Virus record (IMG/VR): IMGVR_UViG_2563366971_000005
Source: a virus
Lineage: Duplodnaviria; Heunggongvirae; Uroviricota; Caudoviricetes
DNA: 41,744 nucleotides
Reading direction: 5' to 3' (one strand)
The notes beneath the pieces were generated by a model. It was not told the DNA's origin. It saw only the letters and a program-made list of their open reading frames with translations, and made no database searches. The translations under genes and the position numbers were made by a program. Positions 27,961 through 29,165 of this stretch are shown in pieces. The stretch's first letter is position 1. Every line of letters starts with the position of its first letter.

Positions 27961-28308
27961 TTATGATAGAATCAAGCATATACATCCATCAATAAAGCCT
28001 AATGCAGTTTGCAGCTCCTTTCTTATAGTTCCATCTGAGCACCTGCGTTTCTTCGCGATTGAGCGTAGAGAAACACCAATAACAAAGTGAGCAATAACCA
28101 ACTCATATTCTTCTGGTTTATATTTCCGCAAACGAGCAACACAACCGTCTATCATAATGCCTTCATCATCATCGCACTGGAGGCGTGACTTTTTACCATG
28201 CGGCAAAAGCCCCTTGAAACCCGCTGCTATCGGTTGCCAATCGACACCACTATTTTCTGCTGCAGCCCATGCCCCCCAGCGGTCTAAAACCTCATACATA
28301 TCACGCAT
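27961..28308 (-). CDS. Late antiterminator Q (QuuD-like family)
   Basis: 115-aa ORF MRDMYEVLDRWGAWAA…IAAGFKGL… resembling QuuD-type Q proteins; position upstream of lysis genes. Confidence 0.8.
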   Translation of the reverse strand: MRDMYEVLDRWGAWAAAENSGVDWQPIAAGFKGLLPHGKKSRLQCDDDEGIMIDGCVARLRKYKPEEYELVIAHFVIGVSLRSIAKKRRCSDGTIRKELQTALGFIDGCICLILS

Positions 28309-29165
28309 TATTCACACTCCCCAACCAGATTGAGGATGACCGCCGAGCCATTGTCTTTCATATATTCTCCCTTTCCGCTTGCTAAAAACCAACGACACAC
28401 CTCCACGGCTTCAGCCCGTGTGACCGGTTTGATGGTCATCAGCAATTTTTCAAGGTAGCGCTCGCGGTCATATACCGATTCGTGATGCTCAGAGTAACCA
28501 AACTCATCGCCCTGTTCTTTAGTTGCAGTGTGGCGAACACTGTAGAGCCAGTCCCAGTAAACAAACTCACGAACTACGTCTGACAATGTATGAGGCTCTG
28601 GCAGCACATCACGATAGCCATCAACATATGCACGACGCTGATCATCAATTTCATTCATACGGATGCCGTCAATGCTGCCCGCTTTCTTCTCGGCTGCAGT
28701 CCACCCCCAGAGATGATCATCGATAAATTTCTGGGAAGACTTGATCACTCGCTCGGCTTCCACATCTTCGAGTGCTGCTTCATAGCTACCAAACGTAGCC
28801 CTGACTGATGCTGCTTTTTTTATATTTTCCCGGGCGATCCTGATTGCCTGTGCCGGGTTATCCATGCCGATGGTACCGAAAGCAATCTGGAAAGGATCGC
28901 CACCATTCGCCAGCAGATAACGCGAATAGCGTTCCTGAGCCTCTTTTGGGGAAATTTTAATTTTCACCAGCGCGGCCTCAGCAGCATCCAGATGTGCGGG
29001 TTCGTTCAGACGGATAACCTCCAGCACCCAAAGATAAGCATCAGTCTGCTTATGCCCGGTGATTCTCCGTTGCTCTGGCAGGGGCTTGATGTTTGCGAGG
29101 GTGGAGCTGTACGCTGCCGTCGGGATGGTGAATAGTGCTTTATGTTCGTTATTATCAGTACGCAT
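28308..29165 (-). CDS. Hypothetical protein (nin-region position, no family recognised)
   Basis: 285-aa ORF translationally coupled (TAATG) to primase upstream and to Q downstream. Confidence 0.5.
   Translation of the reverse strand: MRTDNNEHKALFTIPTAAYSSTLANIKPLPEQRRITGHKQTDAYLWVLEVIRLNEPAHLDAAEAALVKIKISPKEAQERYSRYLLANGGDPFQIAFGTIGMDNPAQAIRIARENIKKAASVRATFGSYEAALEDVEAERVIKSSQKFIDDHLWGWTAAEKKAGSIDGIRMNEIDDQRRAYVDGYRDVLPEPHTLSDVVREFVYWDWLYSVRHTATKEQGDEFGYSEHHESVYDRERYLEKLLMTIKPVTRAEAVEVCRWFLASGKGEYMKDNGSAVILNLVGECE

Follow-up and report, generated by a model that had tools for sequence, protein, structure and literature searches.

A replicase-associated optional cassette between primase and antiterminator Q in a temperate phage encodes a predicted headless member of a protein family with an acidic all-helical core

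Results

Gene X is coupled to primase and antiterminator genes

The gene analyzed here, called X in the following, is located in a stretch of 41,744 nucleotides (nt) of viral DNA (Caudoviricetes; IMG/VR record IMGVR_UViG_2563366971_000005), referred to as the window, and lies on its minus strand at 28308..29165, where it forms an open reading frame (ORF) of 285 amino acids (aa) with an ATG start codon. Upstream of X and on the same strand lie the two genes of a replicase pair, namely a superfamily 2 (SF2) helicase gene at 30135..31793 (Pfam ResIII and Helicase_C; PHROG 16) as the first gene of the pair and a DNA primase gene at 29165..30133 (Pfam Toprim_3, Zn_Ribbon_Prim and DUF7146; PHROG 510, 'DNA primase'), and the gene for a 115-aa antiterminator Q follows downstream at 27961..28308, also on the minus strand (Phage_antitermQ, Pfam E-value 6.7e-46). 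Both neighbors are joined to X by a TAATG overlap on this strand: at 29163..29167 the final A of the primase TAA is also the first base of the X start codon ATG, and at 28306..28310 the final A of the X TAA opens the ATG of Q. As the overlaps are found at both ends and a consensus scan of the minus strand from primase to Q detected neither promoter-like nor terminator-like sites, X is expected to be co-expressed with primase and Q, and it is predicted to be part of one transcription unit with helicase, primase and Q, with translational coupling at both ends. The ORF, its length, both overlaps and the co-expression that had been proposed in an original prediction, made from the sequence of the window, were thus confirmed; its order of primase, ORF and Q, given without naming a strand, holds on the minus strand only. 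The first strong terminator-like hairpin after the helicase-primase-X-Q run, identified by consensus match only, is located on the minus strand at 27861..27885 (read 27885-27861), 76 nt past the stop codon of Q; it has a stem of 10 pairs with a T run behind it and is a candidate for a Q-controlled late terminator. A replication origin within X was considered and rejected, as neither an iteron array inside or adjoining X nor a composition anomaly was found in 28308-29165.

X is a conserved gene under purifying selection

More than 100 clusters (90% identity) matched X over its full length at 79-97% identity, and full-length matches were obtained from Escherichia, Salmonella, Enterobacter, Citrobacter, Cronobacter, Leclercia, Atlantibacter and Lelliottia. 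The ratio of nonsynonymous to synonymous substitution rates (dN/dS, Nei-Gojobori) of X was 0.10 against both Fels-1 and phi467, as compared to 0.11-0.17 for the helicase and 0.04-0.07 for the primase. Moreover, an AlphaFold2 model of X built from a 129-sequence alignment reached a mean predicted local distance difference test (pLDDT) score of 88.3 and a predicted template modeling (pTM) score of 0.79, and was all-helical with about 14 helices. Based on the dN/dS of about 0.10, the confident model and the full-length conservation in many genera, X is a genuine and strongly constrained gene. The view that it is an open frame by chance or the remnant of a decaying gene could appeal to the lack of a match in curated families and to a 158-aa variant in Klebsiella phages that resembles an internal deletion; it is already effectively refuted by the dN/dS of 0.10, the pLDDT of 88, the full-length conservation across enterobacterial genera and the exact stop/start coupling at both ends.

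X is an optional cassette with boundaries at the coupling junctions

The boundaries of X were located by blastn of window positions 26000-33000 against related phages. Homology to phi467 (97%) and Fels-1 (87%) starts exactly at 28306, and the Q proteins of these two phages belong to other families (about 271-276 aa versus 115 aa in the window). With Yersinia phage YP3 and Escherichia phage Fostie, in which Q comes straight after the genes of a homologous helicase and primase and X is missing, homology stops exactly at 29169. A tblastn search of 50,697 phage records detected the X family in only 12 of them, YP3 and Fostie not being included. Of the records that encode a homologous primase (E ≤ 1e-30; 128 in total), these 12 alone contain X and 116 lack it. 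Five of the 12 records hold full-length X (611R1, phi467, Fels-1 and two records of ENT39118) and seven, all Klebsiella phages, the 158-aa form. Among complete Escherichia coli genomes, 97 of 5,426 carry X, and in the matches listed it is nearly always placed between a toprim protein and an antiterminator (annotated under several names). X is a self-contained, discrete and optional cassette.

The synonymous divergence (dS) between the window and Fels-1 was 1.10 for X and 0.30 for the adjoining primase, which argues for separate histories of the two genes. The G+C content of X is about 0.50, that of the replication genes 0.50-0.57, that of Q 0.38-0.48 and that of the toxin genes further downstream 0.34-0.43; judged by its lower G+C content and the homology breakpoint at 28306, Q belongs to a different mosaic module from X. 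The mosaic breakpoints at 28306-28310 and 29163-29169 match the TAATG overlaps to within a few bases, which implies that the coupling junctions act as module boundaries, on one side for exchanges of Q and on the other for presence or absence of the cassette. Such exact cassette boundaries at TAATG overlaps were not found stated in the annotations or the literature searched. The replicase itself, i.e., the helicase (30135-31793) together with the Toprim primase, is common to many Stx2a-converting phages at a primase identity of 57-58%, and none of the Stx2a-converting phages with this replicase, including P13374 and TL-2011c of the O104:H4 type, carries the X cassette.

X belongs to a family with and without DNA-binding heads

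X matched PHROG 6204, a family of unknown function, with residues 1-285 on profile positions 1-285 of 286 (E 3.7e-184, 611 bits), and its C-terminal lobe additionally matched PHROG 2887 (residues 171-285) and PHROG 19083 (residues 210-285), both also of unknown function. It is 98% identical to the 'hypothetical protein' CUW01237 of phi467 and 84% identical to STM0902 of Fels-1, each of which occupies the same primase-X-Q slot. By sequence, X is orthologous to Fels-1 STM0902 and is an already catalogued member of PHROG 6204, from which it differs in nothing and which is itself without a Pfam or NCBIfam model. When 1.84 billion cluster representatives were searched with a profile, 162 clusters (50% identity) were returned at E ≤ 1e-3, which makes for a small but real family.

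Most relatives are about 300 aa long and carry an N-terminal segment of about 45 residues (e.g., '...LRRTHSLREVAxxTGLPLGTVKTICSRSG'), which precedes the motif 'DNPEHRxLFTLPP' and resembles a helix-turn-helix (HTH): among 129 members, Pfam models Sigma70_r4 and Sigma70_r4_2 were matched in 42 and 38, respectively, and other HTH models in fewer, all of these matches being weak. No Pfam HTH model matched X of the window or its C-terminal domain. X starts at the very motif that follows the HTH in its relatives, and the DNA upstream of this start is primase coding sequence homologous to that of phages without X. The isoelectric point (pI) is about 11 for the head regions and about 5 for the cores, and in one relative Bro-N replaces the HTH as head. 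By sequence comparison, X is accordingly a headless member of a family built from a basic DNA-binding head and an acidic, all-helical, two-lobed core. The N-termini of two long relatives looked ParB-like by eye; ParB-like heads are not claimed, as the only match was a sub-threshold one to ParB_N in one of them (E 0.058).

The HTH-bearing relatives stem from Pseudomonas, Aeromonas, Herbaspirillum, Zoogloea, Comamonas and other beta- and gammaproteobacteria (e.g., P0153, P0385 and P0134). They share with X the two-lobed core at 25-50% identity, including the motifs DNxxHRxLFxLP, VTGDxExDAxLWL, PxTLSDCLxExxYW and ILxNLxG, as well as the placement directly after a replicase gene, but differ from it by the basic HTH of about 45 aa (pI of about 11) and by a non-coding gap to the replicase gene, sometimes containing iterons, instead of translational coupling. 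The core motifs DNxxH.xLF, TGxxxxDAxLW, PxTLxD..E..YW and ILxNLxG, derived from three alignments (A1, A2 and A3), were all present in X. Many NCBI records, e.g., P0001 and that of ENT39118 (NC_019934), label the HTH-less protein 'helix-turn-helix domain-containing protein'; this label was not reproduced and fits the longer relatives only, and RefSeq records of E. coli now mostly give 'hypothetical protein'. The architecture of head plus core, with its split into headed and headless members, was not found stated in the annotations or literature searched.

The conserved regions of X comprise a short peptide and two lobes. The N-terminal peptide of residues 1-15, MRTDNNEHKALFTIP (29121..29165, minus strand), aligns with 'DNPEHRxLFTLPP' past the HTH of the relatives and contains N5, invariant in alignments A1 and A3, as well as H8 and F12, invariant in A1. 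The N-terminal helical lobe (residues about 36-143; 28737..29060, minus strand) bears the motifs ITGxxxxDAxLWV, RY and FGS and is formed by helices between residues 39 and 142 in the AlphaFold2 model; the N-terminal part of PHROG 6204 was also matched in the Pseudomonas locus L007. The C-terminal helical lobe (residues about 167-281; 28323..28667, minus strand) contains the motifs PxTLSD..E..YW..L...R, DR, P..R.EA and ILNLVG. Ten residues, N5, E138, P191, D196, E200, W204, R211, R234, E252 and L280, are invariant in the 129 sequences. The 158-aa variant occupies the primase-Q slot of Klebsiella phage KPP5665-2 (L002 4851-5327) and of six other Klebsiella phages, which align to X residues 172-285 in tblastn. 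It retains the N-terminal conserved peptide (roughly residues 1-13) and, as the sole lobe, the C-terminal one, and lacks residues 15 to 130 or so and with them the N-terminal lobe, so that it looks like a maintained in-frame internal deletion.

X matches no known enzyme family or fold

X gave no Pfam or NCBIfam family at E ≤ 0.1, and its halves, scanned separately at E ≤ 10, gave nothing meaningful. Searches of PDB sequences with the single sequence and with the 129-sequence profile were likewise negative, and no neighbor of the AlphaFold2 model was found among PDB or BFVD folds; the family apparently lacks a solved fold relative. PADLOC returned only a marginal match to PbeC over 46 residues (E 0.0034, 14 bits), and solved anti-defence inhibitors were not matched in the PDB sequence and fold searches. 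Among Pfam and NCBIfam models, X matched none of the ordinary nin-region families (NinB/Orf, NinG/Rap, RusA, NinH), which in lambda occupy the same slot between replication genes and Q, no kinase, methylase or resolvase, and no replication initiator or helicase loader (lambda O/P, DnaC, DnaD-like, PriCT). Neither Bro-N, KilA-N or ORF6N heads nor ANT, KilAC or pRha tails were detected in X by Pfam. Kinship with Roi of HK022 was rejected, since the family hidden Markov model found nothing in six-frame ORFs of the HK022 region from O to Q that holds roi, and a role of X as a required replication protein was ruled out, since this replicase occurs without X in the majority of phages (YP3, Fostie and 116 of 128 records). 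Literature searches on STM0902, on phi467/Stx2f and on DUF927 and satellites yielded nothing on the X protein, STM0902 leading only to unrelated microarray work.

These results qualify the original prediction in several respects. Its authoring model had recognized no family and had named an ordinary nin-region match as the finding that would speak against this; none emerged. Its term 'unassigned' holds with respect to Pfam, NCBIfam, PADLOC and PDB, but not with respect to the full-length match to PHROG 6204 and the roughly 160 clusters at 50% identity. Its remark that cargo genes such as kinases, methylases and resolvases are common at this locus agrees with the optional nature of X (absent from YP3, Fostie and 116 of the 128 primase-bearing records); it sits less well with the lack of any kinase, methylase or resolvase mark, with a G+C content of about 0.50, like that of the replication genes and not that of Q or the toxin genes, and with relatives tied to replicases in many unrelated elements. 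Two of the analyses it had called for were carried out: structure prediction gave the AlphaFold2 model (pLDDT 88.3) without PDB or BFVD neighbor, and the context survey of homologues, described below, placed the relatives after replicases in prophages and in islands resembling phage-inducible chromosomal islands (PICIs).

Relatives of X follow replicase genes in phages and PICI-like islands

Five loci of distant HTH-bearing relatives were looked up individually. In a Herbaspirillum prophage the gene order is Rep_O, a 135-aa protein, DnaB_C, a 98-aa protein, X, Sequestin and RusA. A Pseudomonas island runs from int, AlpA and pRha via further genes to Toprim_3, DUF927 and X, and a metagenomic island from int via further genes to PriCT_2+AAA_25, X, an 89-aa protein and host genes. 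A second metagenomic island holds AlpA, HTH_39 and a DnaG ribbon protein, then DUF3987, a 159-aa protein, X, a 204-aa protein and host genes, and in a genomic island int, HTH_39 and Toprim_3+DUF3987 precede X, with further genes in between. X was thus located one to three genes past the replicase in all five. In Gram-negative PICIs, int, alpA and pri are followed by an origin downstream of pri (PMC10111431), and four of the five elements are small integrative elements of about 8-12 kb with this layout. There was no Q near the distant relatives in small islands, no terminase gene was seen in the flanks examined, and a conserved small partner gene adjoining X was not found in the distant relatives. 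The presence of the X family in PICI-like islands was not found stated in the annotations or literature searched.

With an alignment of family members as query, 73 loci were retrieved from species genomes in GTDB (Pseudomonas, Aeromonas, Herbaspirillum, Zoogloea, Comamonas and others). A seed-like primase or helicase was found at most 3.5 kb upstream of X in 39 of them, a few further loci showed DnaB/AAA_25 or DUF3987 proteins upstream (Pfam), and the rest were early regions with cI-like repressors, Cro-like HTH proteins, Bro-N or ORF6N proteins. In IMG/VR, 80 loci were returned with the enterobacterial HTH-bearing relative P0134 as query and 72 were analyzed, in all of which a replicase gene is located immediately upstream of X. 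The HTH-bearing copies follow a DUF927 helicase gene in every case (44/44), with a gap of 115-1,130 nt, and the 28 headless copies all abut either an SF2 helicase and primase of the type found in the window (25) or a DnaB-type helicase (3) and all abut Q as well. The correlation between headed or headless state and replicase type is perfect in these 72 loci; it was not found stated in the annotations or literature searched. Four Q seed types were each found with both kinds of X. As the subtype of X tracks the type of replicase and the Q types mix, X travels with the replicase and not with Q.

Iterons were detected between the DUF927 gene, which they immediately follow, and HTH-bearing X in three loci: L007 (7380-7622) contains direct and then inverted copies of the 9-mer GTGGCAACA, and L189 (6908-7020) and L197 (7379-7494) contain three direct and three inverted copies of the 9-mer GTTGGTTCA. 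These arrays look like PICI-type origins. In L007 (Pseudomonas chromosome, GCA_976996285.1), a homologue of tail assembly protein I of the lambda type (PHROG 32, E 4.6e-55) and a phage lipoprotein gene lie after the island at 9391-10512. Judged from this gene order, the island (int, AlpA, Toprim, DUF927 and X) may sit within or beside prophage late genes, an arrangement that can be likened to the helper-embedded PICIs described previously (PMC10111431).

Toxin genes are located downstream of Q

Directly downstream of Q, the window encodes a pertussis-like AB5 toxin on the minus strand. The A subunit gene is located at 27002-27790 (PDB 4Z9C chain A, 'Pertussis toxin-like subunit ArtA', E 1.7e-126) and the B subunit gene at 26444-26869 (ArtB, 5WHU, E 1.1e-65). 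Together (26444-27790; G+C content of 0.34-0.43) they occupy the slot held by stx2f in the near-identical phage phi467, which, along with the ArtA and ArtB matches, marks the window as an ArtAB/EcPlt-type toxin-converting prophage on the backbone of an Stx2f phage. The hairpin at 27861-27885 lies ahead of the toxin genes and would put their expression under the control of Q, as in Shiga toxin (Stx) phages.

Discussion

The explanation of X that we favor, tentatively and with a probability of roughly 0.35, is that its core is a non-enzymatic, protein-binding and non-essential accessory of the replication module. X would be a delayed-early protein made from the transcript it has in common with helicase, primase and Q. 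In the HTH-bearing relatives the core would recruit a partner protein to DNA in the vicinity of the origin or of the early operon's end, and headless X would bind the same partner off DNA and, as a non-essential factor, would modulate either replication or the transition from replication to late expression. The protein-binding role, the link to the replication process and the existence and identity of the partner are what we infer from a constrained yet optional cassette, the usual presence of a DNA-binding head, the linkage to replicases and the lack of a known enzyme family or fold. The non-enzymatic part is suggested by the negative searches of Pfam, NCBIfam and PADLOC families and of PDB and BFVD folds.

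Several observations weigh against this explanation. X is associated with at least six unrelated replicase types, and for this reason a replication protein encoded by the phages cannot serve as partner in all of these settings. It is dispensable for the replicase of the window, as YP3 and Fostie do without it and only 12 of 128 primase-bearing records carry it. About 28 of the 73 GTDB loci have no recognized replicase upstream, and some HTH-less relatives are located away from any recognized replicase, e.g., just before an integrase gene (L133) or directly after an ORF6N antirepressor-like gene (L139). Common descent of whole modules, and not function, could account for the association of X subtype with replicase type. 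Furthermore, lack of a match to known enzymes does not prove that X is non-enzymatic, since acidic and basic residues are among the invariant ones (E138, D196, E200, R211, R234 and E252).

Three other roles were weighed against the accessory role. According to one, X is a transcription regulator or antirepressor-like module whose core represents a new effector domain of regulators headed by HTH, Bro-N, KilA-N or ORF6N domains, the headless copy acting as an anti-factor that, for example, sequesters a repressor or modulates Q or RNA polymerase. Modular phage regulators and antirepressors do resemble the X family in carrying swappable DNA-binding heads on a conserved tail and in their position between replication genes and Q: heads like sigma-70 region 4 were seen in up to 42 of 129 members and Bro-N in one, an ORF6N protein is encoded directly upstream of X in L139, X in lambdoid phages always lies directly before Q and is coupled to four Q seed types, and its slot is that of annotated antirepressor genes between replication genes and Q in Stx1 phages. 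They differ from it in that ANT, KilAC and pRha domains were not detected and the copy in the window is headless with an acidic core; together with the lack of a family-profile match in the roi region of HK022, the absence of Q near the distant relatives in small islands and the finding that X subtype follows the replicase and not Q, this weighs against a regulatory role, which we consider rather unlikely. Somewhat more doubtful is a function as anti-defence or host-takeover cargo, i.e., an early, acidic and optional protein that neutralizes an immune system or another host protein and whose HTH, when present, serves only autoregulation. Some anti-CRISPR proteins are fused to an HTH for autoregulation, and an optional cassette with exact module boundaries, early expression, an acidic core and an unfamiliar fold would suit such a protein, as would the cargo-prone position to which the original prediction rightly drew attention. 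Nevertheless, strong purifying selection (dN/dS 0.10) gives no sign of fast evolution, X is among the few conserved genes of islands of only 8-12 kb, it is placed consistently after replicases and not in variable hotspots, its G+C content is like that of replication genes, and PADLOC provided nothing beyond the marginal 46-residue match to PbeC (E 0.0034).

A role in redirecting packaging, as known for Rpp and TerS of satellites, is very improbable; here, the head would read cos or pac, the core would capture the terminase of the helper, and phage copies would be relics or counter-measures. Rpp proteins of Gram-negative PICIs bind DNA through their N-terminal domain and protein through a helical C-terminal domain, are 144-153 aa long and possess a MerR/TerS-like winged HTH and a coiled-coil dimerization helix (PMC6739421). 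Their general logic of a DNA-binding head and a protein-binding part is that of the HTH-bearing relatives of X, HTH-bearing members do occur in small islands (integrase, AlpA, primase and X) with no terminase in the flanks examined, and the island in L007 is succeeded by a tail assembly gene of the lambda type. The X core, however, measures about 250 aa, the copy in the window has no DNA-binding domain, X is also found in complete prophages of 35-46 kb, and ORFs of terminase size are present in the window itself at about 20991-23400. Membership of X in the Rpp/TerS group was rejected on account of size, domain type and the lack of similarity of the family profile and the model to Rpp or TerS in PDB. 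The probability that remains belongs to a function of a kind not considered among these alternatives.

A wider version of the accessory explanation, which we regard as improbable though worth stating, would make the X family an unrecognized component of replication modules with a new fold, common to temperate phages and PICI-like satellites. HTH-bearing copies would then tether a host or helper protein beside an iteron origin, and headless copies of the Fels-1/phi467 type would be soluble decoys or competitors for the same partner. The decoy role, which is just as speculative, could for instance be that of a phage counter-measure to satellites with the HTH form, or that of a regulator of replication timing.

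For the window itself these findings carry little weight, as X hardly differs from a hypothetical protein that is already catalogued, and to a specialist an early gene of unknown function at this locus will come as no surprise. The coincidence of the mosaic breakpoints with the TAATG overlaps is a neat illustration of gene-sized module exchange in lambdoid phages. The family is of more interest: it combines a confidently predicted fold and strong constraint with the lack of any relative of known structure or function, it occurs with and without a DNA-binding head, and it is a clean target for a partner screen. The identity of the partner, if found, could reveal a new accessory step in the replication of temperate phages and satellites or a new point of conflict between them.

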